From: Candidatus Omnitrophota bacterium
GTDB lineage: Bacteria > Omnitrophota > Gorgyraeia > 1-14-0-20-64-10
Reading direction: 5' to 3'
Length of the DNA: 64,000 bases
NCBI GenBank assembly: GCA_016201735.1
Contig: JACQCH010000057.1
Location: forward strand, 18 to 64,017
Position numbers and translations under genes: made by a program. The notes beneath the pieces were generated by a model, which had not been told where the DNA came from, searched no databases, and worked only from the letters and a program-made list of their open reading frames with translations. Numbering within the stretch: the first letter of the stretch is position 1; each line of letters begins with the position of its first letter. Shown in pieces: positions 26,742-60,328 of this stretch.

Positions 26742-27521
26742 TTAGAGCCGAGAAATTAACGTGGGGCCGTGGCGTAGCGGGAGCGCACCGCGATGGCATC
26801 GCGGAGGTGAGAGTTCAACTCTCTCCGGCTCCACCATCTTTAAAGCTTCTTCTCCCAAACTCTGCAGGGTAAATTGCAGAGTTGTACTCGAATACTGAAC
26901 GGCACAAACTCCCTTATAATCCTGGCGTTTGGTTATTTTCCCCATCGTGCGCAAATCAGGTTTTCGCCGATAGAAATGACTCTCTGGAATTCCGGTAACT
27001 TTAGACCAATACTGAATAAGTAATTTTTGAGATTGATCGCATCGATGTCCCACTTCTCCGCGCAATCTCTGTTCATCAATAACAAAATACGTTCGTAGCA
27101 ATTGAAGGAAGAATCGAATCATCTGCGGATCAGAGTTCCCAAAACGCATTCCTTGGGTCGAAGGATACTTGGCCCCTTCACAGATATAAAGCAGAGCGCA
27201 GAGCAATTTCCCTAGAACGGGGGAAAGTGTAACATTTTGAACTATAGCTCGAACTTCCTCGCGTATTCCTTGTTTCCAATCCTCTATCTTTTTCCGATTA
27301 GCAATCACAGCAAGTGGCTGCCCGATTCGAGCTGCCGCCACAACTCGGGAATGGATTCGGTTCCTGGCTTCCGTCGAAAGCGAAACAGATCTTACCCATC
27401 CTTGCACCGTCGTTTTTGGAACGTGAAGTTGGACGCTCAATTCATCCAGAGAATACCCCTTCCGACGAAGCTGGATCGCCTGCATTTTGATTTCAGGAGG
27501 ATATCGCTGATATACAGACAT
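26742..27521 (-). CDS. Low-GC (~42%) foreign gene with N-terminal HTH, possibly a degenerate homing-endonuclease/transposase-like protein
   Basis: GC drops sharply from ~62% to ~42%. HTH segment GYSLDELSVQLHVPKTTVQGWV; possible degenerate LAGLIDADG-like motif LLCALLYICEGAKY. The C-terminal ~31 codons are antisense to tRNA-Ala. Confidence 0.5.
   Translation of the reverse strand: MSVYQRYPPEIKMQAIQLRRKGYSLDELSVQLHVPKTTVQGWVRSVSLSTEARNRIHSRVVAAARIGQPLAVIANRKKIEDWKQGIREEVRAIVQNVTLSPVLGKLLCALLYICEGAKYPSTQGMRFGNSDPQMIRFFLQLLRTYFVIDEQRLRGEVGHRCDQSQKLLIQYWSKVTGIPESHFYRRKPDLRTMGKITKRQDYKGVCAVQYSSTTLQFTLQSLGEEALKMVEPERVELSPPRCHRGALPLRHGPTLISRL
26763..26836 (+). tRNA. tRNA-Ala (anticodon GGC), CCA encoded
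   Basis: Manual fold: acceptor GGGGCCG/CGGCTCC with G3:U70 Ala identity pair, D stem GCGT/GCGC, anticodon stem CCGCG/CGCGG with loop AUGGCAU, T loop TTCAACT, then ACCA. Confidence 0.85.
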
Positions 27522-27586: not shown

Positions 27587-27670
27587 GCCGAGGTGGCGAA
27601 ACCGGCAGACGCGCGAGCCTCAAAAGCTCGTGAGGGCAACCTCATGAGAGTTCGATTCTCTCCCTCGGCA
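27587..27670 (+). tRNA. tRNA-Leu (anticodon CAA), long variable arm
   Basis: Manual fold: acceptor GCCGAGG/CCTCGGC, anticodon stem CGAGC/GCTCG with loop CUCAAAA, variable arm TGAGGGCAACCTCA, T arm GAGAG-TTCGATT-CTCTC. Upstream TATAAT at 27566. Confidence 0.85.
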
Positions 27671-31037: not shown

Positions 31038-32038
31038 TGTTTCTTTAAGGAAGCTATTCTATCCTTAATCTGGACGGCTGACAACCCCAAGGTTTCTTTG
31101 GCCCGGATCAGATCGGTCAACAGCCCGTTAACGGGCGTGGGAATCCGATGCCGGATCCCCATCCGGACGATGGCGCCGTTTAAGGCGCCGATCTCCGTCT
31201 TCTTTCTCCGACGGAGGTCCTGAAGCATCGAGGGATGATGGGCCGCCGTGGCCGGAATCAACCGGTCGAACAGCTCCTTGGAATATTCTTCGGCAGTGGA
31301 AGGGGCCAAATCCATCCCCTCGGCCCGCCCTACCTGATAGGATTCCTTCACCACACCGCGCATCAGATGGCGAGTCGCTTCAGTCTCTAGAAGCCGGCCG
31401 TACGGAACCTCCAGCAGGGTCGAGAGGGGGTTTAAGGCGCAGTTGTAAATCACCTTGCTCCAGAGCGCTTCCCGAATCCGATCGGTGACTTGGGTCTTCA
31501 AGCCCGCCGAGGTCAAGCCCTCCGCGATTGGTTTTAAACGCTCCAACGGCAGGGCCGGGGCGAGCGCCCCCAACAAGATATCTCCTCCCCAGACCGTGAC
31601 CGTGGCGACACCGGGTTCAAGCTCGACGCCGAAGATCACCCGGCCGCCGACCAGTTGAGAAACCGGCAGGTGCTCCGCCAACGTTTCCCAATTCCCGAGT
31701 CCGTTCTGCAGGGAGATCACCTGGGTTGAGGATTGAATCCGATCCGCCAAACCCCGGGCCGCCTCGAGCGTGTCGTTGGATTTCACCGTCACCAGGACGA
31801 CGTCCCACGTTTCACGGGGAAGCTCCTCGAACTCCAGAGCGACTCGGCAATCTCTGATCTGATGTTCCCCAAGGATTCCCCGAAGGACCAGCCCATTGCG
31901 GCGAACCTCGTCGAGATGCCAGGGCCTCCCCAGCAGGCAGACCCGTTGTCCGGATTTCGCCAGAAGGCCGCCGACCACCGAACCAATGGCCCCCGCCCCG
32001 ACAACGAGCCAGTTCCCCTTATCCGTCGAGAGATTCAC
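31034..32038 (-). CDS. panE: 2-dehydropantoate 2-reductase (ketopantoate reductase)
   Basis: Rossmann motif VVGAGAIGSVVGG plus an ApbA C-terminal domain. Likely GTG start overlapping the upstream stop (GTGA); the ORF's longer N-terminal extension is probably non-coding. Confidence 0.75.
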   Translation of the reverse strand: MNLSTDKGNWLVVGAGAIGSVVGGLLAKSGQRVCLLGRPWHLDEVRRNGLVLRGILGEHQIRDCRVALEFEELPRETWDVVLVTVKSNDTLEAARGLADRIQSSTQVISLQNGLGNWETLAEHLPVSQLVGGRVIFGVELEPGVATVTVWGGDILLGALAPALPLERLKPIAEGLTSAGLKTQVTDRIREALWSKVIYNCALNPLSTLLEVPYGRLLETEATRHLMRGVVKESYQVGRAEGMDLAPSTAEEYSKELFDRLIPATAAHHPSMLQDLRRRKKTEIGALNGAIVRMGIRHRIPTPVNGLLTDLIRAKETLGLSAVQIKDRIASLKKQ

Positions 32039-32625
32039 CCCTCGAGGCGCCCGGTGATCTCTTCCAGGGCCTGGCGGAATGGTTGGTTGTCCACCACCGG
32101 GACGGTTCCCTCGATGGGAACCGGCGTCGAAAGGGGCACCCAAGATTTACAGCCGGCGTATTCCGGCCGGACCGGATGAACAATTTCCTTCTTTAACCGA
32201 TAGGCCCGCAGAACCACCGCCAGCATCGGGGAGATCGGCCGGTATCTCATCCGCTCCTGGATAAATTCCGGGGTCCAGATGTGGAACTTTTCCAATCCGG
32301 CAATCCGCTGGGGATCTTGAACCTGGGCGCAGTAGGCAACGCCGGCATACACCTTTAGAGGGACGCTCTGCGGGGCCGGCGGCTGCGTGAACAGCTCCTT
32401 GTAACGTTCCCGAAACTCGGGACGGACGCGGCACTCCGGGGATTCTCTTTGATGTTCCCAGGTCGGATAAAGGAAGAACTCCCGATGCTCCAGCTGGAAG
32501 GCCCCCTTCGGATCCCGAATCCCTCCTTTACGCAACAGGAGGATCTGCCGGCCCTCTGCCATGGCCTGGACCACCACTGCCCATTCTTTCAGCGCTACAT
32601 CCGATGTCATCATGGAAGCTTTCAT
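32035..32625 (-). CDS. Conserved hypothetical cytoplasmic protein
   Basis: 196-aa ORF with good codon periodicity; coupled to panE; no recognisable motif. Confidence 0.45.
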   Translation of the reverse strand: MKASMMTSDVALKEWAVVVQAMAEGRQILLLRKGGIRDPKGAFQLEHREFFLYPTWEHQRESPECRVRPEFRERYKELFTQPPAPQSVPLKVYAGVAYCAQVQDPQRIAGLEKFHIWTPEFIQERMRYRPISPMLAVVLRAYRLKKEIVHPVRPEYAGCKSWVPLSTPVPIEGTVPVVDNQPFRQALEEITGRLEG

Positions 32626-33500: not shown

Positions 33501-36500
33501 ATGATCAAGGACACCAAACCGGTTACCTGGGGGCAAACTTCCGCTGCTGAGCACCCCAACGGCCAGCCGCAGGAGTTTGCCGCTCCCACGCACGGCCTGA
33601 ACATCCCCCTTTATTTCTCGGAAGCGGGAGTGGATCCGTTTCGCCAGGTGACCTGGGAGCTGCGGACCGCCTCCATCACCAATGAGCATGGAGAGGTGGT
33701 TTTCGAACAGGCGCAGGTGGAGGTGCCTTCCTTCTGGTCCCAGATCGCCACGAACGTGGTGGTCTCCAAGTATTTCCGCGGAGCCCTGGGCACCCCCCAG
33801 AGAGAAAACTCGGTCAAGCAGCTCATCAGCCGGGTGGCCAACACCGTTACGGAATGGGGAATTAAGGATAAATACTTCGCGACCCCCCAGGAGGCCGAAA
33901 ATTTCAGGGCGGAATTGAGCACCCTCCTGCTGACGCAACGGGCCTCTTTTAATTCCCCGGTCTGGTTCAATGTCGGGATCGAACCTCACCCCCAGTGCTC
34001 GGCCTGCTTCATCCTGTCGGTGGAAGACAAGATGGAGTCGATCCTGGACTGGTACCGGGTGGAAGGAATGATCTTCAAGTACGGGTCCGGGTCAGGGATC
34101 AACCTTTCCCCGATCCGATCCGCCAGGGAGCCCCTGGCCGGAGGGGGAACGGCCAGCGGGCCGGTCTCCTTCATGAGGGCGGCCGACGCTTCCGCCGGAG
34201 TGATCAAGTCGGGTGGAAAAACCCGCAGAGCGGCAAAGATGGTGGTGCTCAACGCCGACCATCCGGACATCGAGAAATTCATCTGCTGCAAATGGCAGGA
34301 GGAAAAGAAGGCCTGGACCCTGGTGGACGCCGGTTACGATTCCTCCATCGACGGAGAGGCCTACTCCAGCGTCTTCTTCCAGAACGCCAATAACTCCGTC
34401 CGGGCAACCGACGAATTCATGAAGGCGGCCCTGGAAGATAAGCCGTGGGATTTGAAGGCCGTCACCACGGCCCAGCCGTTTCAGACGGTCCGGGCCCGGG
34501 AGCTGCTCCATTTGATTGCCGAAGCGACGTGGAACTGCGGCGATCCCGGCATGCAGTTTGATACGACGATCAACCGCTGGCACACCTGCCCCAACACCGG
34601 GCGGATCAACGCCAGCAACCCCTGTTTTACAGGCGACGCCAAAGTCTACACCGATCGGGGGCTTATTCCGTTCAAAGAACTAGCCGAACGTGTTTCCCTT
34701 GGTGAGACCTTTCGAGTTTTCACTCATGATGCGACGAACGCTCATTCTCCGGCAGAGACGGTCAGCCTGACCCGGCCAACCCAGATCATGCAGACAGGCG
34801 TGAATGAGGTGTACCGGCTGCGATTCTCAAATGGGATAGAAGTGACCTGCACCAAGAATCATCGCTTCTTTACCCGGAACCGGGGCATGGTAGCCGCAGA
34901 GGATCTTCAACCGGATGATGAGATTCTAACGCTCAACCAGCCGGTCGAGTTCCCGGCCTCTTCCTTGGCCATCGATGCGGACCACGCAGCCATTTTTTCC
35001 GGCGGGCGGGCATCGGGGGGGGCCACCCACGGCTACAAACCGGTTCAATTACCGTCCGTCTGGACGACCCCCCTTGCGGAGTATCTTGGATATCTCGTCG
35101 GGGACGGCTGCATCAGGGACGGCTCTGATTCGCGCAACCGCCTCAGTACCGCCAGCGTTGTCTTTGGCGCTCCAGCAGACGCAGAAGAACTGGCGCCTCG
35201 CTTCCGCGCTCTCTTTCAGGAAATGGGCGTAGAGGAATTGCAGGAAGTGGAGATGCCCAATGGGACGTCGCAATTGCGAGTCAACCGAACGCCGGTGATC
35301 CGTTTCTTCAAGCAGCTCGGGGTTTCTACCGCCAAGGCGCCCGAAAAAGTGATTCCGCACACTCTGTTTAAAGCCCCAAAACATATCGTCGCAGGATTTC
35401 TCCGCGGACTCTTTACGGCGGACGGCTGCGTGTACGATGGAAAGAAATCTCGCTACGTTGGCTTGGGCAGCGTTTCAAAACAACTTTTGCTCGAAACCCA
35501 ACAGCTTCTGGCCAGTTTTGGAATCAAGAGCGGGATCTATTCAACCAGGGAACCCTTCGAGGCTTTCCCCTATACCAAGCGGGATGGGAGCCGCGTAGTG
35601 TACCGCACTCACCAGATCTATGATTTGCGAGTCAGCGGCCCAAGCATCGCCCGCTTCAAGGAACAGATCGGGTTCCTGACGGCAAACAAGCAGGCAAAGC
35701 TGGATCGGCTCATTGCTGAACACGAACTCTATCAGGTCAAGGAAACGGTCCGGCTGAAAGAGCGGACCTTCGTTGGTCTGGAGACGACCTACAACCTGAC
35801 GGAACCCAAGAACCACAGCTACATCGTGAATTCGTTAATAGTATCTAACTGCAGTGAATACATGCATTTAGATAACTCGGCGTGCAACCTCGCTTCATTA
35901 AATCTCATGAGGTTTCTCGACGACAGCGGCCGATTCAAGATCGCCGACTTCCGGGCGGCGGTGCGAACCATGACGATCGCGATGGACATCCTCGTGGATA
36001 ACTCTTCCTACCCGACGCCGAAGATCACGGAGAACGCCAAGAACTTCCGGGAACTGGGATTGGGGTACGCCAACCTGGGAGCCCTTCTGATGTCGCTGGG
36101 AGTTCCCTACGACTCCGATGAGGGCCGGGCCTACGCCGCCACCGTGACGGCCTTGATGTGCGGCGAGGCGTACCGGACCTCCGCGGAGATCTCCGGAGTC
36201 AAAGGGTCCTACGCCGGGTTCGTCAAAAACAAGGAACCTCAGCTTCACGTCATCCGGATGCACCGGGACGCCCTCATCCATGTGGACGATCGCATTGTCC
36301 CCGAAGAAATGTTCGCCGCCGCCGCCCGCACCTGGGAGGAGGCCCTGCGGCTGGGGACGCTCCAGGGGATCCGGAATTCGCAAGTCACCGTCCTGGCTCC
36401 CACCGGCACGATCGGATTCATGATGGACTGCGACACGACCGGCGTTGAGCCGGACATCGCCCTGATCAAATACAAGAAACTCGTGGGCGGGGGCTTGATC

Positions 36501-37517
36501 AAGATCGTCAACAACACGGTCCCTCGGGCTTTAAAGAAGCTCGGCTACTCTCCGGAACAGATTCAGGCGATCTGCGATTACCTGAACAAAGAGGGAATGG
36601 TCGAGGGAGCGCCGGGCCTGGACCCGAAACATCTGCCGGTTTTTGACTGCGCCTTCAAACCAATGAAAGGGACCCGGTCCATCCATTACATGGGTCACAT
36701 CCGGATGATGGGAGCCGTCCAGCCGTTCATCAGCGGGGCAATCTCCAAAACCGTTAACGTTCCTCCCGACGCTACGGTGGATGAGATCATGCAGAGCTAC
36801 ACCGAAGCATGGAAACTCGGCGTCAAGGCCGTTGCGATCTACCGGGACGGTTCCAAACGGGTGCAGCCGCTGTCCACCGGAAAAACCGAGGTGGCCGAGA
36901 AAGAATCTTCGGACCCCCCCAAGCACCGGCCGCAGCGGCGCTATCTGCCCGATGAGCGAAACGCCCTCACTCACAAATTCTCGATCGCCGGCCACGATGG
37001 GTACGTGACGGTCGGGCTCTACGAGGACGGAAAACCGGGCGAGATTTTCATTGTGATGTCCAAGGAAGGAACGGTGATCTCCGGCCTCCTGGACGCCTTC
37101 GCCACGGCGATCTCCCTGGCCCTGCAGTACGGAGTTCCTCTGGAGGCTCTGGTGAAGAAATTCAGCCACATGCGGTTTGAGCCGGCGGGGATCACTTCCA
37201 ATCCGCAGATCCGGTTCGCCCAATCGATTCTCGACTATGTCTTCCGCTGGATGGCTCTGAAATTCTTGCCTGCGGACAAGCAGCCCACTCCGCCAGCGAC
37301 CGTGACGGACCTGGCGGCCAATCAGGCCGACGTGACGCAGCCGAACTCGACCGCCGGAACCGGCTCCACCCTGGAGCCAAGCCGGCAGGCCATTCAAAGT
37401 CAATCCTTCCAGGGCCAAGTGGACGCTCCTCCCTGTCCGGACTGCGGGGCGATGATGATTCGTTCCGGCAGCTGCTACAAGTGCTTCAACTGCGGAGCCA
37501 CTTCCGGCTGCAGCTAA
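33501..37517 (+). CDS. nrdJ: Class II (adenosylcobalamin-dependent) ribonucleotide reductase NrdJ, intein-containing
   Basis: 1338-aa ORF. Exteins carry RNR motifs (...INASNP|CSEYMHLDNSACNLASLNL, C-terminal zinc ribbon CPDCG...CFNCG). SD aagaggag sits 8 nt upstream of ATG. Confidence 0.93.
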   Translation: MIKDTKPVTWGQTSAAEHPNGQPQEFAAPTHGLNIPLYFSEAGVDPFRQVTWELRTASITNEHGEVVFEQAQVEVPSFWSQIATNVVVSKYFRGALGTPQRENSVKQLISRVANTVTEWGIKDKYFATPQEAENFRAELSTLLLTQRASFNSPVWFNVGIEPHPQCSACFILSVEDKMESILDWYRVEGMIFKYGSGSGINLSPIRSAREPLAGGGTASGPVSFMRAADASAGVIKSGGKTRRAAKMVVLNADHPDIEKFICCKWQEEKKAWTLVDAGYDSSIDGEAYSSVFFQNANNSVRATDEFMKAALEDKPWDLKAVTTAQPFQTVRARELLHLIAEATWNCGDPGMQFDTTINRWHTCPNTGRINASNPCFTGDAKVYTDRGLIPFKELAERVSLGETFRVFTHDATNAHSPAETVSLTRPTQIMQTGVNEVYRLRFSNGIEVTCTKNHRFFTRNRGMVAAEDLQPDDEILTLNQPVEFPASSLAIDADHAAIFSGGRASGGATHGYKPVQLPSVWTTPLAEYLGYLVGDGCIRDGSDSRNRLSTASVVFGAPADAEELAPRFRALFQEMGVEELQEVEMPNGTSQLRVNRTPVIRFFKQLGVSTAKAPEKVIPHTLFKAPKHIVAGFLRGLFTADGCVYDGKKSRYVGLGSVSKQLLLETQQLLASFGIKSGIYSTREPFEAFPYTKRDGSRVVYRTHQIYDLRVSGPSIARFKEQIGFLTANKQAKLDRLIAEHELYQVKETVRLKERTFVGLETTYNLTEPKNHSYIVNSLIVSNCSEYMHLDNSACNLASLNLMRFLDDSGRFKIADFRAAVRTMTIAMDILVDNSSYPTPKITENAKNFRELGLGYANLGALLMSLGVPYDSDEGRAYAATVTALMCGEAYRTSAEISGVKGSYAGFVKNKEPQLHVIRMHRDALIHVDDRIVPEEMFAAAARTWEEALRLGTLQGIRNSQVTVLAPTGTIGFMMDCDTTGVEPDIALIKYKKLVGGGLIKIVNNTVPRALKKLGYSPEQIQAICDYLNKEGMVEGAPGLDPKHLPVFDCAFKPMKGTRSIHYMGHIRMMGAVQPFISGAISKTVNVPPDATVDEIMQSYTEAWKLGVKAVAIYRDGSKRVQPLSTGKTEVAEKESSDPPKHRPQRRYLPDERNALTHKFSIAGHDGYVTVGLYEDGKPGEIFIVMSKEGTVISGLLDAFATAISLALQYGVPLEALVKKFSHMRFEPAGITSNPQIRFAQSILDYVFRWMALKFLPADKQPTPPATVTDLAANQADVTQPNSTAGTGSTLEPSRQAIQSQSFQGQVDAPPCPDCGAMMIRSGSCYKCFNCGATSGCS
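34623..35849 (+). mobile_element. Intein (409 aa) with LAGLIDADG homing-endonuclease domain, inserted immediately before the catalytic Cys of NrdJ
   Basis: Begins CFTGDAKVYT (block A Cys1), block B TCTKNHRF, two LAGLIDADG motifs (LGYLVGDGC and AGFLRGLFTADGC), and ends ...IVNSLIVSN|C (Asn + Cys+1). Confidence 0.9.
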
Positions 37518-37906
37518 TCAAACAGAGGCGGGCACTCCGTCGCGGCCTCAGCGAACCGACCTAACAAGTCCTGATCCGGATATCGGTGCGCTTTCCGGCG
37601 AAGTTGATCCAAGGACAATCCCAACGAAGGCTCGATAACCTCTGGACTGAAACTCGGTTCCGGCACTTGAGAGACCGGAATGGTTACCCCGAGAGAAATA
37701 TCCGCCGTTCGGCTCAAGCTCATCGAAGATCGATTCACGGATTGAACTGCTTGAACTTGAACCGGTGAACCGGCTTGAACAGCCGGTAAGATTTTCACCG
37801 GGGATGGGGAGTCGATTGTTGCCGCAAATCCCCCAGAGGAATTGAATAGAAGTCCTACGGTTCCCACAAACACCCACACGCCCAAGATCCTTGCTAACTT
37901 CATCAC
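37514..37906 (-). CDS. Small secreted P/S/V-rich hypothetical protein downstream of tpsA
   Basis: Signal peptide MMKLARILGVWVFVGTVGLL; low-complexity mature part; convergent 4-nt overlap with nrdJ. Confidence 0.4.
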   Translation of the reverse strand: MMKLARILGVWVFVGTVGLLFNSSGGFAATIDSPSPVKILPAVQAGSPVQVQAVQSVNRSSMSLSRTADISLGVTIPVSQVPEPSFSPEVIEPSLGLSLDQLRRKAHRYPDQDLLGRFAEAATECPPLFD

Positions 37907-38222
37907 CCGACCCTCCGCGTTTTCCTCCTTCAGCGCGCGAGGGCCTTGGGTCTCTTTCTGAACCTGGCAACTGGCTACCCGCCACTTTTGGCGGGCCCTT
38001 TAGCTTTGCGACCCCGGATTACTCCGGGTGTGCCTTGAGACAGGTCCCCGCGTCTTTCAACCCATCTAGTTAATTTATACCTTACAAACCGGCTAGAAAT
38101 CAAGAGGTAAACATCGTAACTTAAATAGAATCATATATTTATAAACAAGCTTCTTTCTGTCTAGCGGCGCTTAGAACTGCTTAAATCCACTTAGGGTTTC
38201 AGGTGGCTAGAGGGGACTTTAG

Positions 38223-41200
38223 TTAGCTCGCCAGCGTCCGGGCGCGGCGCCGATTCTCTGGAGAAAAGACAAAGGAGAGGTACTGACTGAGGAAATCCAG
38301 GAAGACCCCCGTATTCGAGGTAACCACCAAAGGTCCTGCCGTCGGCAAAGGCGCAGGGGGAGGTGGAGGGGGAGAATAAATCACCGCTCCGTTAAAGATC
38401 ACCTGCCCTGGCGGGCTGTTGAGCAGACTCAGTGTCCCGCTCGGGGTGACGGTGCCTGAAATGTCCACGGAAACCCCGCTCACCTCAGAAGCGGCTGAAA
38501 CACCCAAGGAAGCCCCAGTGACCAGGACATCGAATGGATCGGCCAACAGGCCGATGACGCCGCCGGCCGTCAGAGAAGAATTGCCTCCCGCCGTCAGATT
38601 CAGAGCGGAGCCGTTGCCATCCAGGATCGATCCGCCGGCCGTCAGAACCACAGCCCCGGTGGTGGAGACTGTTCCAACGGTGATGTCGCCGCCCGGAACC
38701 AACGTCAGGTTCTTTGAACCTTGGGTGAGGCCATCCACCGCCATCGCTCCGGCGGTGGAATTGCCGATGGTGAGGACGCCGGTGGTCGTGACTTGATCCA
38801 GCTCCCCGTCGGTCAGGTTGAAATGCCCGGCGCCGGCTCCCAAGCCGACCGTGACTCCTGTGGAGGGCAGCAGGGTTACGCTGCCCGACCCGCTGTTGAT
38901 GAAGCCGTTTAACGCAATGTCGTCCGCTGTGATCTGCGCCGGCTGGCCCAGCGCGTTGATCGTCCTGGCGGCTGCCACGGTAAAGGTGCCGACCCCGTCC
39001 GTATTGGAGTCGGCGTTGGCCGTGAAGCCACCGGTCGTCACCGTCAGATTCCGGTCGACGGTGATGCCGTCCGCTCCGTTTGCAACCAGCCCTTTGAAGG
39101 TAGAGTCTCCGGTGGCGAAGCTCACCGTCTTTGCCGCTCCTGTCGCGCTTAAGGTAACGGTCCCGACGTTTCCGCTGTTGGCCGCGGTGATTCCATTCAC
39201 GATCACGTTGCCCGCCGTCTGAAGGGTCAGCCCATTGGAGGTGATCCGCTGGAGCTCCGCGCCGCTCACGTTCACTCCATTCGTAACGGCAGTACCGCCC
39301 AAACCGATTCCAGTCCCGTCGGAGTCGTTCAGGATCAGCGCCGCGGTCCCGCTGGTGATGCTGCCGGAAGCGGCCAGGTCGAAATTGTTCACAGTAAGGG
39401 TCAGGGGGTTGTTTGAAGTTGAAAGGGTCCGGCCGTTGGCAACGGTCAATGTTCCGCTGTTATCCCCAAAATTCCGGTCGGTGTCGATCACGGCCATCTG
39501 GTTCGTGGTCAGAGAACGGTTGAGCGTGATCCCATTATTGGCAAAAAGCTCTACCCCGCTTCCGCTGGCAGCGCCGATGGTCACATCCGAGGCCCCCTGG
39601 ACCGTGATGGAGCTGGCCCGACGCGTTAAGGCCCCCGCTCCCGACCCGTTGGTGCCGCGGGTTAAAGCTTCTCCGAGAGTAAGGGTGCCGGTGGTCTGCA
39701 GCCGGTCCATCTCGCTCTGGATCAGCAGGCCGGTCGATCCGATCGTCAAAGAAGCGTGCTGCGACCGGGCCAGATGAATCGCTCCGGATCCGGCATCGAC
39801 ATCCGCGTTGAGGGCAAAGTTGGCGCCCATTAAGGTCACCTCCCCTCCATTCGAAGCAACAGCGCTGTCGACGGTCAGAGTGCCCGTCCCGTCCGCGGCG
39901 CCGGATGTGCTGTGGGGAGAATCGGCTTCCAGGTAAAGGCCGCCGCCGGCCGTCGTGATCGGCCCGCTTACGGTGATGTGCCGCCCCGCCTGAAGGGTGG
40001 CTGATTTTCCAGTTCCATTAACCACGATGCTGGCCGCTGCGATGTCCGTGCCGGCGGCCACGGCAATCGACCCATCGGTCGTAGAAAGGTCCGTCAGGGT
40101 AATCGCATCCGCCTCACGAAGAGCGATGCCGCCCGTGCCGCTGACTGCCGCAATGACATCGCTCACGACTGTGTCCAGATTGATTCCAGTCACCGCCGAC
40201 AGGGTCAGTGTCGAACCGGTCACATTCGCGGCGGCCCCGTTGCCGTCGGTAATGGCGCCTCCAGAGGTGAGACTCACGGTGCTGGTCGTCCGGACCTGCC
40301 CCACAGCGAACCCGTTCGCGTCCCGGTAGGTGAGCGCCCCAGCCGCGTTCGCCGAGTCCGCCGCGTTGCGGGCGCTTAAGTTGACCGTGGTGAAGTCGTT
40401 GCTGGCGTTGTCCAGGGTGACCGCTGCACCAGAGTTGTTCAAGGTTTTGACCGCCAGCGTCGAACCCGCCATCGCACCGCTCTGCGTGATCGCCCCGCCG
40501 CCCGTCAGCGTCACTGTACCCGTCGTGTTCGCCGCCGCCGCATCAAACCCGTTTGCGTCCCGGTAGCTCAGTGCCCCCGCCGCATTCGACGTGTCCGCCC
40601 CGTTCCGGGCTCGCAGATCCACCGTCGTAAAGTCATTGCCAGCGTTGTTCAGCGTGATCGCTGACCCTGCATTGTTCAAGGTCTTCGCCGTCAGCGTCGT
40701 GCCGGTCATCGCACCGATCTGCGTGATCGCTCCCCCGCCGGTCAGTGTCACCGTGCCTGTCGTCCGAACTCCGGAGACGCGAAAGCCGTTCGTGTCCCGG
40801 TAAACCAGCGCCCCACCAACGTTCGCGTTGTCCGCCGCGTTGCGGGTGCTCAAGTTGACCGTGGTGAAGTCGTTGCTGGCGTTGTCCAGGGTGACCGCTG
40901 CACCAGAGTTGTTCAAGGTTTTCACCGTCAGCGTCGAGCCGGTTATCGCGCCGCTCTGGGTAATCACCCCGCCGGCTGTCAGCGTCACCGTGCCCGTCGT
41001 GTTCGCCGCCGCCGCATCGAACCCGTTCGCATCCCGGTAGGCGATCGCCCCCGCGGCATTGGCGCTGTCCGCCGTATCCCGAGACCGAAGGTCGACCGTG
41101 GTCGCATCGTTGGTGGCGGAGTTGAGCGTAATCGCAGCCCCCCCATTGATCAGCGTCTTGGCCGTCAGGGTGTTGGCGCTGATCGTGCCGCTGGGCTGGG

Positions 41201-43190
41201 TAATGCCGCCGTTGCGGCCGGTGATTGTGACATTGCCGGTGGTGGTCAGGGAGCGGACCGTGATCGTCCCAGCCGTATTGAGAGTTCCCATGGTGAGGGT
41301 GATGTCCTGGTTCCCTGCGTTAAGGGTTGTGCCCACCGCCATTGTCATGTTTGCGGCGCCCGCCGTGCGATTCGCCGATTGCGCCGCAGAATCATTGGCG
41401 GTCAGTGAGATGGCGCCGTTATTGGTTGTGATGTTGTTGTTGATCAGAACCGACCGGCCGGCCTGGATGGTCAGCGTCTTCCCCGCCGAGATCATATTGA
41501 TCGGGTCGGTCACGGTGACATCCGTATTGGCCTGCAGAAGAATGTTGGCGGCAGCGGCGGCGATGGACGCCGGCGTGATGACGTTGGTGCCGGCCGGGTT
41601 ATTGCCAAACAGGTTGTTGACCCCGCTGTTGTAAGCAGATCCCCCCGCCGTTCGGACCATCAGGAATTTTGGATCCAGCAGCAGGGTGCCGACCGCGCCC
41701 TGGGGAGCGAGGAGGTTAACGTTGCCGTTGAAATCCAGCTCCTCCTTGCCCGACACCTCAGCGAATCCGCCGTCGCCGGAGAAGAGCCCCCCTTGAGCCG
41801 TGATGGAGCCGTAAAACCGATTGGCGTCATCCGCCCAGACGATCACCCGGCCGCCGTTGCCTTGATTCAGGGAATCCGCCCGGATTGCAGCATCCGGACT
41901 CGCATAAGTCCTCCAAGCGTTGGGCACCGTCCCTTTCCCCTGGAAATCACCGCCCATCAAGACCGTGCCTCCGCCGACATCTCCGGATACATCAACGAGC
42001 GCGTTCTCCAAAAGTCCAACCTTCTGTGCTAAGAGATGGATCGTCCCGCCCTTTCCCCCGGCGAAGCGGCCCGTCGCCTCTGTCTGGCTGTGCCCGGCGA
42101 GGAGAGTTTCATCGACGCCGACGATCTCAATCTGTCCGGCCTGTCCGCCAGGACCTGCGTTGGCGGTCACCGTTCCCATCTGGACGATTCGTGTTCCCTT
42201 CAGAGAAATCTGGCCGGCATCCGGAGAATTTGATGTGCCGTCCGCGTGAATCATCCCCCCCTGCTCAAGAGTTCCCCCTTCCCCGACGAATGCGATCCGC
42301 CCCCCTTGATTCTCCAATCGGCTGGCCTCCACCAACCCGCTGTTATTGACCACCCGGTCAAAGAGATTCTCCAACGACTCCGCCTTAATCAACACATTCC
42401 CACCAGGAGCGGAAATCGTTCCGGCTTGCTGGACCGCCGCGGAGACCGGACGGCCTTCCAGGTCCATGACAATCTGGGAAAGAGGTTTGTCGACCGTCAC
42501 GGCGATCTGCTCGGTCGGATCCAAGGTGAGCGTCATCTGCTCCCCGGAGCCCAAGGCGACGGTTCCCTGCTGCGCCACCAGCAATCCCTTGTTCACCACC
42601 GCGCCTCCCAAGAGGGCGATCAGGCCGCCGGGTCCAACGGCCTCGATGCTTCCTCTATTAACCAGTTCCGCGGGGAAGAACCCATCCGGCTGGCTGAAGC
42701 GGTAGGACCCCTGGGCAAAATCAAGATTGGAGATATCCAGGGTGGAGGCCACAAAGGTAGGGGCTTGAATCCTCGCCGTGTCGGCAATCTGTATCCCGCT
42801 GGGGTTGACATGGAAGAAGGGGACGTTCGAAGTTAAAGTGCCGGCGATGTCCGAAGGATCCCCGCCGGTGACGCGGGTCAGGACCCGGGAAGTATCGGTC
42901 GGCTGATGGAGATGGAAGACGATCGTTTCTTGGGGTGCCAGATTAAACTGGTTGTATTGGAGAATCGCCTGATCCGACTCGATGTGAACATGCTCTCTCT
43001 GTGGGTCGACTTGTTCGGAGGAAGCGGTCCCCTCTTCAACGGTGAAGCCGGTAGGCAAAGCAAGGACACCCACCGGAAGGATCAACCCTTGCACAAGGGC
43101 TAAGAATCCCACCAGAAATTTCAGCGCCGCCGCGCGTAGTTCATGGCGACGCAGCGCGTTGAGCCAACCCCAGCGGCTCACGCGTTGCAA
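38223..43190 (-). CDS. Two-partner-secretion exoprotein TpsA (filamentous haemagglutinin-like, 1655 aa)
   Basis: Extended signal peptide; N-terminal TPS domain (...VLTRVTGGDPSDIAGTL...FHVNPSGIQIAD...); long beta-helical repeat region; poly-Pro then a hydrophobic/basic tail FLDFLSQYLSFVFSPENRRRARTLAS. Confidence 0.85.
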   Translation of the reverse strand: MQRVSRWGWLNALRRHELRAAALKFLVGFLALVQGLILPVGVLALPTGFTVEEGTASSEQVDPQREHVHIESDQAILQYNQFNLAPQETIVFHLHQPTDTSRVLTRVTGGDPSDIAGTLTSNVPFFHVNPSGIQIADTARIQAPTFVASTLDISNLDFAQGSYRFSQPDGFFPAELVNRGSIEAVGPGGLIALLGGAVVNKGLLVAQQGTVALGSGEQMTLTLDPTEQIAVTVDKPLSQIVMDLEGRPVSAAVQQAGTISAPGGNVLIKAESLENLFDRVVNNSGLVEASRLENQGGRIAFVGEGGTLEQGGMIHADGTSNSPDAGQISLKGTRIVQMGTVTANAGPGGQAGQIEIVGVDETLLAGHSQTEATGRFAGGKGGTIHLLAQKVGLLENALVDVSGDVGGGTVLMGGDFQGKGTVPNAWRTYASPDAAIRADSLNQGNGGRVIVWADDANRFYGSITAQGGLFSGDGGFAEVSGKEELDFNGNVNLLAPQGAVGTLLLDPKFLMVRTAGGSAYNSGVNNLFGNNPAGTNVITPASIAAAAANILLQANTDVTVTDPINMISAGKTLTIQAGRSVLINNNITTNNGAISLTANDSAAQSANRTAGAANMTMAVGTTLNAGNQDITLTMGTLNTAGTITVRSLTTTGNVTITGRNGGITQPSGTISANTLTAKTLINGGAAITLNSATNDATTVDLRSRDTADSANAAGAIAYRDANGFDAAAANTTGTVTLTAGGVITQSGAITGSTLTVKTLNNSGAAVTLDNASNDFTTVNLSTRNAADNANVGGALVYRDTNGFRVSGVRTTGTVTLTGGGAITQIGAMTGTTLTAKTLNNAGSAITLNNAGNDFTTVDLRARNGADTSNAAGALSYRDANGFDAAAANTTGTVTLTGGGAITQSGAMAGSTLAVKTLNNSGAAVTLDNASNDFTTVNLSARNAADSANAAGALTYRDANGFAVGQVRTTSTVSLTSGGAITDGNGAAANVTGSTLTLSAVTGINLDTVVSDVIAAVSGTGGIALREADAITLTDLSTTDGSIAVAAGTDIAAASIVVNGTGKSATLQAGRHITVSGPITTAGGGLYLEADSPHSTSGAADGTGTLTVDSAVASNGGEVTLMGANFALNADVDAGSGAIHLARSQHASLTIGSTGLLIQSEMDRLQTTGTLTLGEALTRGTNGSGAGALTRRASSITVQGASDVTIGAASGSGVELFANNGITLNRSLTTNQMAVIDTDRNFGDNSGTLTVANGRTLSTSNNPLTLTVNNFDLAASGSITSGTAALILNDSDGTGIGLGGTAVTNGVNVSGAELQRITSNGLTLQTAGNVIVNGITAANSGNVGTVTLSATGAAKTVSFATGDSTFKGLVANGADGITVDRNLTVTTGGFTANADSNTDGVGTFTVAAARTINALGQPAQITADDIALNGFINSGSGSVTLLPSTGVTVGLGAGAGHFNLTDGELDQVTTTGVLTIGNSTAGAMAVDGLTQGSKNLTLVPGGDITVGTVSTTGAVVLTAGGSILDGNGSALNLTAGGNSSLTAGGVIGLLADPFDVLVTGASLGVSAASEVSGVSVDISGTVTPSGTLSLLNSPPGQVIFNGAVIYSPPPPPPAPLPTAGPLVVTSNTGVFLDFLSQYLSFVFSPENRRRARTLAS
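40090..41160 (-). repeat. Intragenic tandem repeats (~237 bp / ~79 aa, 4-5 copies) within tpsA
   Basis: Repeated peptide TLxxKTLNNSGAAVTLDNASNDFTTVNLSxRNAADxANAAGALxYRDANGF...TTGTVTLTGGGAITQ; plus-strand shadow ORFs start with ~237-nt periodicity (40330, 40591, 40828, 41059). Confidence 0.65.
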
Positions 43191-58540: not shown

Positions 58541-59653
58541 CTATCTAGACCGCAAAGCCCAGCTGACCAGACCAGCCAAGAGGATGAATCCTACGGGGGT
58601 AAAGGTCCAGGAATTGTTGACCCAGGTTTTACTGCAGGCAATCAGGGTTGTCGACCAGAGGAAAATCAGAAAAAGGGCCTTCAGCTGATGGGGCAACCAG
58701 GAGGTGACAAAGGTGCGGCCCCGGCGGATCTCCAACCAACCCCAAAGGACCAGCCCGACGAGAATGAGAAGCAAAACCAGACCAACTGCCTTTCCTACCC
58801 AGACCGGAAGAACCGCCCGTTCAACGATCCAAAAGTCAAGATTGTTCGCGATTAACCAGGCTGGGAGAACCCACAAAACCCAGGTCACCGCGAACCAACG
58901 TTCCAGCGGACGGACGGCCAGAGGCAAGGTCCAGGTGGGCTCCAAGGTAAGAATTGCTATCCCAAGACTGATTCCTCCGCACAGCCCAATCAGATGCTCG
59001 GCCACCTTCCACCAGTCCACCGGAATTCCTAGGGTACCGCCGATCCCCTGCACCCAGGCGGCCAGCGGAAACCCAATCCCAAATCCAATCGCCCCCGCTA
59101 CCGCCAGCTTCAAGGAGGTCCTGTCCTGCCGCCACACCCCAACGTAAGCGGAAACCAGCGCCCAGCTGCTTAAAAGAATCACCGCCATTAATTCCCGGGT
59201 CGCCAAATCCTGGGGACCCGCCAGCCGTCCCCAGATAAGACGATCCACAAGAAACCAGACCAGGAAAAGGCCGCCGGCGATTATTGCCCGTTCCCAAGGG
59301 CGATATTTCGGAAGACTCAAGCCCAATCCGAGCCCAAGAGCTCCCAGGCCTCCCCAGGCGAACCCGATCAATCCCAGGGAACCGATCGCCTCCCAAGAAC
59401 CTTGATACGCGAGAGAGACGAATCGGCCGTAGCTTAACGCCCCACCCACGGCAAAGCTAAGAGATCCAATGACAGCCGCTCCAACCCAACGTGGGCCCCC
59501 TGTCACCGCGGCGATGCTCAAACCGGCCATCGCCCCGGCAATCGCGGACCCCCGCTCATGGCCATGCTGGCCCCGAATCCCCCACGCCAAGGTCATGGCC
59601 AGGGTGATCACGGCCAACTCCCGCCAACGAAGTCGAATCCGAGAGAAACTCAC
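58541..59653 (-). CDS. Polytopic inner-membrane protein of unknown function
   Basis: About 10 predicted TM helices; GTG start (59653) supplied by the 3' end of repeat element E3 (GGAGGGGCGGGGTGAGTTTC...). Confidence 0.5.
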   Translation of the reverse strand: MSFSRIRLRWRELAVITLAMTLAWGIRGQHGHERGSAIAGAMAGLSIAAVTGGPRWVGAAVIGSLSFAVGGALSYGRFVSLAYQGSWEAIGSLGLIGFAWGGLGALGLGLGLSLPKYRPWERAIIAGGLFLVWFLVDRLIWGRLAGPQDLATRELMAVILLSSWALVSAYVGVWRQDRTSLKLAVAGAIGFGIGFPLAAWVQGIGGTLGIPVDWWKVAEHLIGLCGGISLGIAILTLEPTWTLPLAVRPLERWFAVTWVLWVLPAWLIANNLDFWIVERAVLPVWVGKAVGLVLLLILVGLVLWGWLEIRRGRTFVTSWLPHQLKALFLIFLWSTTLIACSKTWVNNSWTFTPVGFILLAGLVSWALRSR

Positions 59654-59798
59654 CCCGCCCCTCCTTTGGTAGGGACGCCTTTCAGGCGTCCCAGAAATCT
59701 TTCGTAAGATTTCTCTCTCTGGCACAGGTGACTCGCCGACCCCTCTCGGTTGACCACCCTCCACCTGTGCCAGAGAGCCCAAAGGAGGGGCGGGGTCA
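59650..59798 (-). repeat. Structured repeat element copy E3 forming the 5' leader of the membrane-protein gene
   Basis: Terminal inverted repeats TGACCCCGCCCCTCCTTTGGG / CCAAAGGAGGGGCGGGGTG. Internal 16-bp stem CTCTCTGGCACAGGTG/CACCTGTGCCAGAGAG, hairpin AGAAATCTT-ACGA-AAGATTTCT, and hairpin GGGACGCC-TGAAA-GGCGTCCC, which is homologous to E1. Confidence 0.6.
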
Positions 59799-59913: not shown

Positions 59914-60162
59914 CTACGCCGATCGAGCCCGAACTGCCACGGCCCGCATTTCATCGGCCCATCGATCCGACATCTTCCCGAAAGAATCCGATCCCTCAGA
60001 CAACCTGCGCTCCTTAGAAGAGAAATCAGAAACCTTATCCGAATAAAATCTTTTTTCGGAAGGATCAGGCCTTGTTCCCAACATTGCCGGCGGGAGAACC
60101 GTGGAGTTTAAAACCAACAACCCAAAAGCAAACCACTTGTCGACTGGCAACCCTGCAGCCAT
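59914..60162 (-). CDS. Small hypothetical protein (82 aa) with hydrophobic N-terminus
   Basis: ORF followed by a strong terminator hairpin; no motif. Confidence 0.3.
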   Translation of the reverse strand: MAAGLPVDKWFAFGLLVLNSTVLPPAMLGTRPDPSEKRFYSDKVSDFSSKERRLSEGSDSFGKMSDRWADEMRAVAVRARSA

Positions 60163-60328
60163 GAGAACCTCCTTCTTTTAGGCCAGCGGTTTTGCGCCCC
60201 CGTCTTTCAGCGGGTTTGCCATTTCTCAGCCGAATCCGTTTTCTAAAACTTCTATTTTAAGTATAGCTGGCCCACGGCGACAATTCAAGAGAAATTGGGG
60301 TAATTTTCCTTGACGGTTCCTCTCAGAG

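Follow-up and report, generated by a model that had tools for sequence, protein, structure and literature searches.

Does a run of unusual codons in the middle of a ribonucleotide reductase gene record the arrival of the mobile element beside it? The gene in question, nrdJ, lies in a stretch of 64,000 nucleotides (hereafter the window) from contig JACQCH010000057.1 of a Candidatus Omnitrophica metagenome-assembled genome (MAG), and is interrupted directly before its active-site cysteine by an intein with a predicted LAGLIDADG homing endonuclease. Immediately after the insertion, the first 22 codons of the C-extein include many AT-ending codons that are rare in this genome. We consider that they are best explained as an extein co-conversion tract, that is, a short piece of donor flank copied together with the intein during homing, and we hold this reading with moderate confidence.

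The precursor is encoded by an open reading frame (ORF) at 33501–37517 on the forward (+) strand, as are all features of the gene given below. Its product of 1338 residues, intein included, is 100% identical to a protein deposited from a Candidatus Omnitrophica MAG (P0001). The exteins match the Pfam families Ribonuc_red_lgC (458.7 bits), Ribonuc_red_2_N (75.8 bits) and TSCPD (46.8 bits); on the presence of the ribonucleotide reductase (RNR) barrel, the class II N-terminal domain and the NPC-x-E motif, the host gene is assigned as a class II, B12-dependent RNR, NrdJ. The N-extein (33501–34622; 374 residues, ending …TGRINASNP) is written in host-typical codons, as is the C-extein beyond its first 22 codons (35916–37517), which contains the TSCPD match and a C-terminal Cys-rich tail (37434–37496). 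Removal of the intein from the precursor restores the SNP|CSE active-site motif, the cysteine of which (Cys+1; NPCSE) we take, from established RNR knowledge, to be the thiyl-radical cysteine.

The insert itself is an in-frame intein of 409 residues (34623–35849), placed at SNP|CSE directly before the active-site cysteine. It runs from Cys1 (TGT, 34623–34625) to a terminal Asn409 (AAC, 35847–35849) and is followed by Cys+1 (TGC, 35850–35852), which is the conserved cysteine of the NPCSE motif in intein-free alleles and the predicted C-terminal splice nucleophile. These boundaries, the length and the junction residues had been given exactly in an earlier note made from the sequence of the window alone. 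Intein-free alleles read SNP-C-SEYMHLDNSACNLASLNL or SNP-CSEYMHLDNSACNLASLNL unbroken across the junction, and colinearity (…SNP-CSEYMHL…) extends to the orthologues L083 and L084 and to the 93 intein-free alleles overall, a non-redundant control set from genome and viral collections in which the genome-scan matches listed are more distant alleles. Scored alone, the intein clears the Pfam thresholds for LAGLIDADG_3 (79.3 bits, threshold 22.5) and Intein_splicing (38.2 bits, threshold 35.8); on the whole precursor the latter family scores 34.1 bits, just under its threshold.

Conservation of the intein blocks was judged in an alignment of 16 related inteins. Splicing block A (CFTGDAKV, 34623–34646) supplies the Cys1 nucleophile and keeps C-x-x-GD in 16/16 sequences, and block B (CTKNHRFF, 34848–34871) contains the T-x-x-H motif as TKNH. 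The first LAGLIDADG motif, LAEYLGYLVGDGC (35073–35111; LVGDG), has a G-D-G that is invariant in the alignment, as is the L-x-G-L-F-x-A-D-G core of the second, IVAGFLRGLFTADGC (35385–35429; FTADG); the acidic residue is present in both. Splicing blocks F (TTYNLTEPKNHSYIV) and G (NSLIVSN) occupy 35784–35849. The usual penultimate His is replaced by Ser (VSN|C), but across the intein family A, S, R and H all occur there, so that the Ser is a family trait and no sign of decay. As judged from these motifs, the insert is a class-1 intein of full length, and its homing endonuclease, with two LAGLIDADG motifs, is apparently intact; the Pfam matches and the conserved motifs uphold the identification of an intein with a LAGLIDADG endonuclease in NrdJ, ahead of the thiyl-radical cysteine, that the earlier note had made. 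Since these motifs are intact and the insertion splits the active-site motif in a gene that is conserved otherwise, the precursor is predicted to self-splice, restoring the NPCSE active site. The intein is scattered among close alleles, which fits the predicted endonuclease activity in this clade.

Is the codon anomaly at the 3′ junction real? GC content at third codon positions (GC3) falls from 0.80 in the N-extein to 0.64 in the intein and 0.55 in the first 22 C-extein codons, and is back at 0.79 in the remaining C-extein. The density of rare codons is 0.23 in the same 22 codons (0.33 with the last five intein codons included), compared with 0.09 in the intein body, 0.027 in the N-extein and 0.021 in the rest of the C-extein; TTA (three times), ATA, GTA, AGT, TCA and AGG, which all occur in the tract, each make up just 3–8% of their synonymous family in the 28 other genes of the window, which served as the codon reference. 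The last five intein codons and the first 22 C-extein codons (35835–35915) form the 27-codon stretch with the lowest codon typicality in the ORF (score −20.1; the next lowest patches score −15.6 and −14.2), which places it in the lowest 0.015% of 13,230 such stretches in the other genes, where the few that score lower sit at predicted gene starts. In synonymous resampling, 0 of 200,000 draws reached its score, and the 22 extein codons alone gave P = 0.0018. When GC3 was segmented by likelihood with two changepoints and no knowledge of the annotation, the segment returned was 34623–35915, its 5′ boundary falling exactly on intein codon 1 and its 3′ boundary 66 nt past the last intein codon. The anomaly at 35835–35915 is real. 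The contrast between atypical, AT-rich codons at the 3′ junction and a GC-rich N-extein, described in the earlier note, is borne out by typicality, resampling and GC3.

In one respect that description needs narrowing. The tract begins inside the intein, in its last four to five codons (the 3′ end reads TCG TTA ATA GTA TCT AAC), where related inteins, too, have AT-ending codons (TCG TTA ATC GTT TCG AAT in allele L087, TCA TTG ATC GTA TCG AAT in L085). On this comparison the 3′-terminal intein codons fit the style of the intein family, and only the extein part is anomalous for its kind; of the tract that the earlier note had drawn across the C-terminal junction, the extein part stands as an anomaly, whereas the intein part is common in related inteins. 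The GC3 of the extein part is compatible with that of the intein (0.55 vs 0.64), but its rare-codon density is not the same. The putative co-conversion tract is this extein part, 35850–35915, as indicated by resampling, by a peak of synonymous differences and by relatives (see below); it may reach approximately 35934.

Comparison with other nrdJ alleles indicates how unusual such a flank is. In the closest intein-free alleles, L083 (88–89% amino acid identity) and L084, the flank codes for the same 22 residues at a GC3 of 0.86 and 0.82, respectively. The AT-rich codons are not shared by these orthologues, the comparison on which, according to the earlier note, the idea of a homing footprint would turn. 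Relative to the rest of the gene, the flank is shifted in GC3 by +0.06 ± 0.07 (minimum −0.11) in the 73 intein-free alleles whose hosts are GC-rich; for the window allele the shift is −0.25 (z = −4.3). Five close intein-bearing relatives (L081/L082, L085, L087 and L088; intein identity 65–72%) are also without the tract, with flank GC3 of 0.73–0.91. Among the alleles compared, the AT-ending tract is private to the window allele. Its being a general property of the active-site stretch is ruled out, the intein-free alleles being GC3-enriched there, and the 93 intein-free alleles show no sign of synonymous recoding by which a target site might escape cleavage. On the other side of the insertion, the last 12 N-extein codons have the same style as those of the intein-free orthologues.

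Other intein-bearing alleles show a shorter bias. Seven of them from GC-rich hosts (L081, L085, L087, L088, L109, L110 and L111) fall below the intein-free alleles in relative flank GC3 (Mann–Whitney p = 0.003), and their AT-ending codons concentrate at −3, −1 and +1 to +8; the junction of L088, for example, reads AGT AAY CCD | TGT TCA GAA … TTA GAT AAT. In the same seven alleles the GC3 of the intein lies 0.2–0.3 under that of the exteins. The AT-ending codons at −3 to +8 could be a homing-site flank that hitch-hikes with the intein, although the sample is small.

A scan of synonymous differences, in which nucleotide differences were counted only at codons for the same amino acid and peaks were assessed by permutation, provides further support for an import. 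Between the window and L083, the gene-wide peak lies at codons +1 to +22 (21 differences in 20 sites; P = 0.005), and between the window and L084 at codons 0 to +21 (P = 0.007). In a tree of the exteins the window allele is sister to an intein-free allele (P0012), and P0002 and P0003, the clade's other intein-bearing alleles, each branch alone among alleles without the intein, which implies repeated gain or loss of the intein in this clade. A sister pair of alleles, the intein-bearing L081 and the intein-free L112, is 94.7% identical in nucleotide sequence across the exteins. Here the gene-wide peak comprises 15 synonymous changes in 20 sites at codons −16 to +5, around the insertion site, a concentration reached in 0 of 5000 permutations (P < 0.0002). 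The cluster includes serine switches (TCA/AGT and AGT/TCG), contains differences in both the GC and the AT direction, and reaches into the N-flank; it is the signature that would be expected from flank conversion upon gain or loss of the intein by recombination. As a conversion-tract signature, this cluster is clearer than that of the window itself.

The geometry of the locus and the comparisons above support the following scheme. The intein would have entered the lineage, or would last have been renewed in it, by homing: the endonuclease would cut an nrdJ allele lacking the intein at SNP|CSE, a highly conserved site, repair of the break would use an intein-bearing allele as template, and the repair would copy the intein together with some 66–85 nt of the donor C-extein flank (35850 to approximately 35915–35934). 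Because the amino acids of the active site are nearly invariant, the import would be recorded only at synonymous positions, as codons foreign to this 59%-GC genome (TTA, AGT, TCA, AAT, CAT and TTT). A tract on the N-side would be either absent, or invisible since donor and host codons coincide there. On sequence comparison, the tract has several properties of a co-conversion tract: it adjoins the insertion site, its composition is foreign, it is absent from orthologues, and synonymous divergence peaks locally over it. The lower GC3 of intein and tract together points to a donor pool with a lower GC3 than this genome. What we infer from these observations is the homing event, the donor's identity and GC content, the activity of the endonuclease and splicing.

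Several findings weigh against this interpretation, foremost among them the outcome of the search for a donor. No donor allele with this flank was found in one genome scan, one metagenome scan and 12 contigs, and a matching donor flank beside the same intein was not among the alleles sampled. None of these exceeds approximately 80% nucleotide identity to the tract, near what identical amino acids alone impose. A protein search with the intein alone returned nothing closer than 75% identity; among the closest inteins (71–75% amino acid identity), those compared at the DNA level sit in GC-rich alleles without the tract; and the single useful locus from a metagenome scan for the intein, L085, has a GC-rich flank. 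The tract was also sought in viral contigs by three DNA-pattern scans, all of which came back empty; tblastn searches of plasmids and phages recovered only distant inteins (21–25% identity). The earlier note had proposed a homing footprint from a lower-GC donor; of this, co-conversion is supported by the divergence peaks and the sister pair, but the donor was not found. Also on the adverse side, letting the low-GC3 segment run past the intein brings only a moderate log-likelihood gain (3.1) compared with stopping at the last intein codon, and the set of intein-bearing alleles with which the flank was compared is small (n = 7), its members phylogenetically related. In every GC-rich relative examined the GC3 of the intein is below that of the exteins (0.54–0.77 vs 0.82–0.96), so that a low intein GC3 is a standing property of the family and no proof of recent arrival. 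Finally, the tract exceeds the intein body in rare-codon density (0.23, or 0.33 with the last five intein codons, against 0.09). With a tract whose codons are more atypical than those of the intein, a single event with a single donor is not the sole fit.

The last observation, together with the typicality scores (−20.1 for the junction zone, −15.6 and −14.2 for the next lowest patches), is what an alternative recombination history would account for. A separate, later short patch may have been exchanged at the 3′ splice-junction zone, either between intein-bearing alleles or by uptake of a foreign nrdJ fragment, in which case the tract would still be foreign DNA but would not record the event by which the intein arrived. 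The roughly parallel divergence of intein and exteins from relatives (75% and approximately 80%, respectively) fits a long-resident intein and is in keeping with such a history. We nonetheless consider it unlikely: the last intein codons resemble those of related inteins (L087), so the intein side looks native to the intein lineage, a patch that begins exactly at the junction is what homing predicts, and, with 20 informative codons, the GC3 of tract and intein is on a rough estimate not clearly different. A donor was not found for this scenario either. A more speculative reading is that, across GC-rich hosts, the flank belongs to the intein family itself (approximately codons −3 to +8, extended to +22 here) and is re-imported by recurrent homing among uncultivated Omnitrophica-like bacteria, or alternatively that the rare-codon run is a selected translational pause that assists splicing at the catalytic cysteine; to this pair of ideas we give little credence. 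Were it true, the recurrently re-imported flank would be a portable homing-site signature for tracing gene flow.

Other explanations dispense with recombination between alleles. The sequence is a metagenome assembly, which itself counts against our interpretation, and a short chimeric patch from a co-occurring population of lower GC could have been joined in at this ultra-conserved region, where the amino acids are near-invariant across phyla and cross-population joins tend to occur. Such an artefact would however need two switches approximately 80 nt apart, one of them inside intein DNA that is poorly conserved even between close relatives (same-codon fraction 0.38–0.43), while leaving the reading frame and motifs intact, and a comparable cluster is present at the same site in the independently assembled pair L081/L112; we regard it as very unlikely. 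Slightly less probable again is that the rare codons were selected, to slow translation after the intein or as an mRNA structure or internal signal that aids folding and splicing. Clusters of rare codons at domain boundaries are a known concept and would favour this, as would the tendency of other intein-bearing alleles in GC-rich hosts to AT-ending codons at +1 to +8. Yet the 22-codon tract is missing in all five of the close relatives that carry the intein and share its junction residues, the C-terminal strands of the intein would presumably still be in the ribosome tunnel at that point, which would make a pause poorly placed, and the L081/L112 differences, which run in both directions and into the N-flank, form a cluster of divergence rather than a shift in codon bias. 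RNA structure, promoter, terminator and repeat were likewise not found at the tract: its predicted RNA folding is no better than that of shuffled sequences (z = −0.45), no sigma-70-like promoter, terminator or meaningful repeat was found in it, and an Rfam scan gave no family in or near the nrdJ ORF. On these nulls a hidden nucleotide-level element in the tract was rejected. There remains chance or local mutational drift, a run of AT-ending codons with no special history, for which the extein-only P of 0.0018 is modest, before any correction for position, as is the likelihood gain for extending the segment into the extein. Against it, three measures coincide where homing predicts a tract (codon typicality, the flank GC3 difference of z = −4.3, and the divergence peaks of P ≈ 0.005 each), and the change from the TCN serine of relatives at +2 to AGT takes several nucleotide changes; we judge it about as improbable as selection of the codons. 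A cluster of palindromes noticed at the junction (GAATTC, CTGCAG, ATGCAT and TCATGA within 83 nt) was dismissed as not significant, at least four occurring in 5.9% of the 90-nt windows of the contig.

Beyond the gene, a divergently oriented gene of the DUF1802 family precedes nrdJ in L081/L082, L083, L084 and the contig of P0002, and in the window an ORF at 32035–32625 (− strand) occupies the corresponding position. If this ORF is the DUF1802 gene, the nrdJ locus would be syntenic across relatives and not part of a mobile island. Two c-di-GMP-I riboswitch aptamers were identified with Rfam on the − strand, at 37963–38044 (59.2 bits) and 60143–60230 (72.4 bits). The former lies just upstream of a small ORF (37514–37906, −) and downstream of a repeat-rich ORF of 1655 residues (38223–43190, −); the latter is upstream of an ORF at 58541–59782 (−). 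Two tRNA genes are present on the + strand (26763–26833 and 27587–27670), and a low-GC3 ORF that overlaps the first of them (26742–27521, −) is probably spurious.

If the tract is a co-conversion tract, as we favour, the locus is a clean natural example, in an uncultivated phylum, of the footprint that homing would be expected to leave at the DNA level while the amino acids of the active site stay fixed, and beside it the 95%-identical sister pair with and without the intein shows the same footprint. Footprints of this kind in synonymous codons could serve to date or trace intein invasions and to delimit the endonuclease target in organisms that cannot be cultivated.

The nearest known systems are inteins at the same site of NrdJ in public metagenome proteins (such as P0002, P0003, P0004 and the L085 allele, from Omnitrophica-like MAGs), which share the insertion point (SNP|C…N|CSE), a length of approximately 400–410 residues, blocks A, B, F and G and the double LAGLIDADG, at 71–75% amino acid identity; among those with DNA compared, none has a 22-codon AT-ending flank, although some have the shorter +1 to +8 version. 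More than 60 of the 120 best NrdJ matches carry an intein at SNP|C. Some related NrdJ precursors (P0004, P0005, P0007 and P0087; 1696–2251 residues) contain two or three inteins, with further sites upstream, whereas the gene in the window has one. By sequence, the nearest solved structures are PI-PkoII (PDB 2cw7), a weak match to the endonuclease region (E = 9e-8) that resides in a DNA polymerase, and the NrdJ-1 mini-intein (PDB 8ubs), a weak match to the N-terminal splicing region (E = 1e-5) that is without an endonuclease domain. Outside NrdJ, the bnrdE gene of the Bacillus phage SPbeta (SPBc2) carries an RIR1 intein (Lazarevic et al. 1998, as cited in PMC3653736). It occupies the homologous position before the catalytic cysteine (SNL|C…GN|CSE) and, like the nrdJ intein, has an endonuclease of LAGLIDADG type; in tblastn, query residues 1–429 aligned through the junction at only 23% identity. 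The host is however a class Ib NrdE of a low-GC phage, and not a class II NrdJ as in the window.

For the process itself, the MCM inteins of Haloferax offer a documented case in which extein residues were co-converted as the intein invaded (PMC10643990), and SegG of phage T4 is, in the account cited there, another case of flank co-conversion (Liu et al. 2003, as cited in PMC10643990). In those systems the evidence is experiment or amino acid markers, whereas in the window it is comparative and resides in synonymous codons only. The likeness lies in a donor flank copied along with the mobile element in double-strand-break repair, and in a tract of donor markers that abuts the insertion site. 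RNR inteins, this insertion point and the deposited protein are already known, and the locus is a tidy, ordinary case of a known process.

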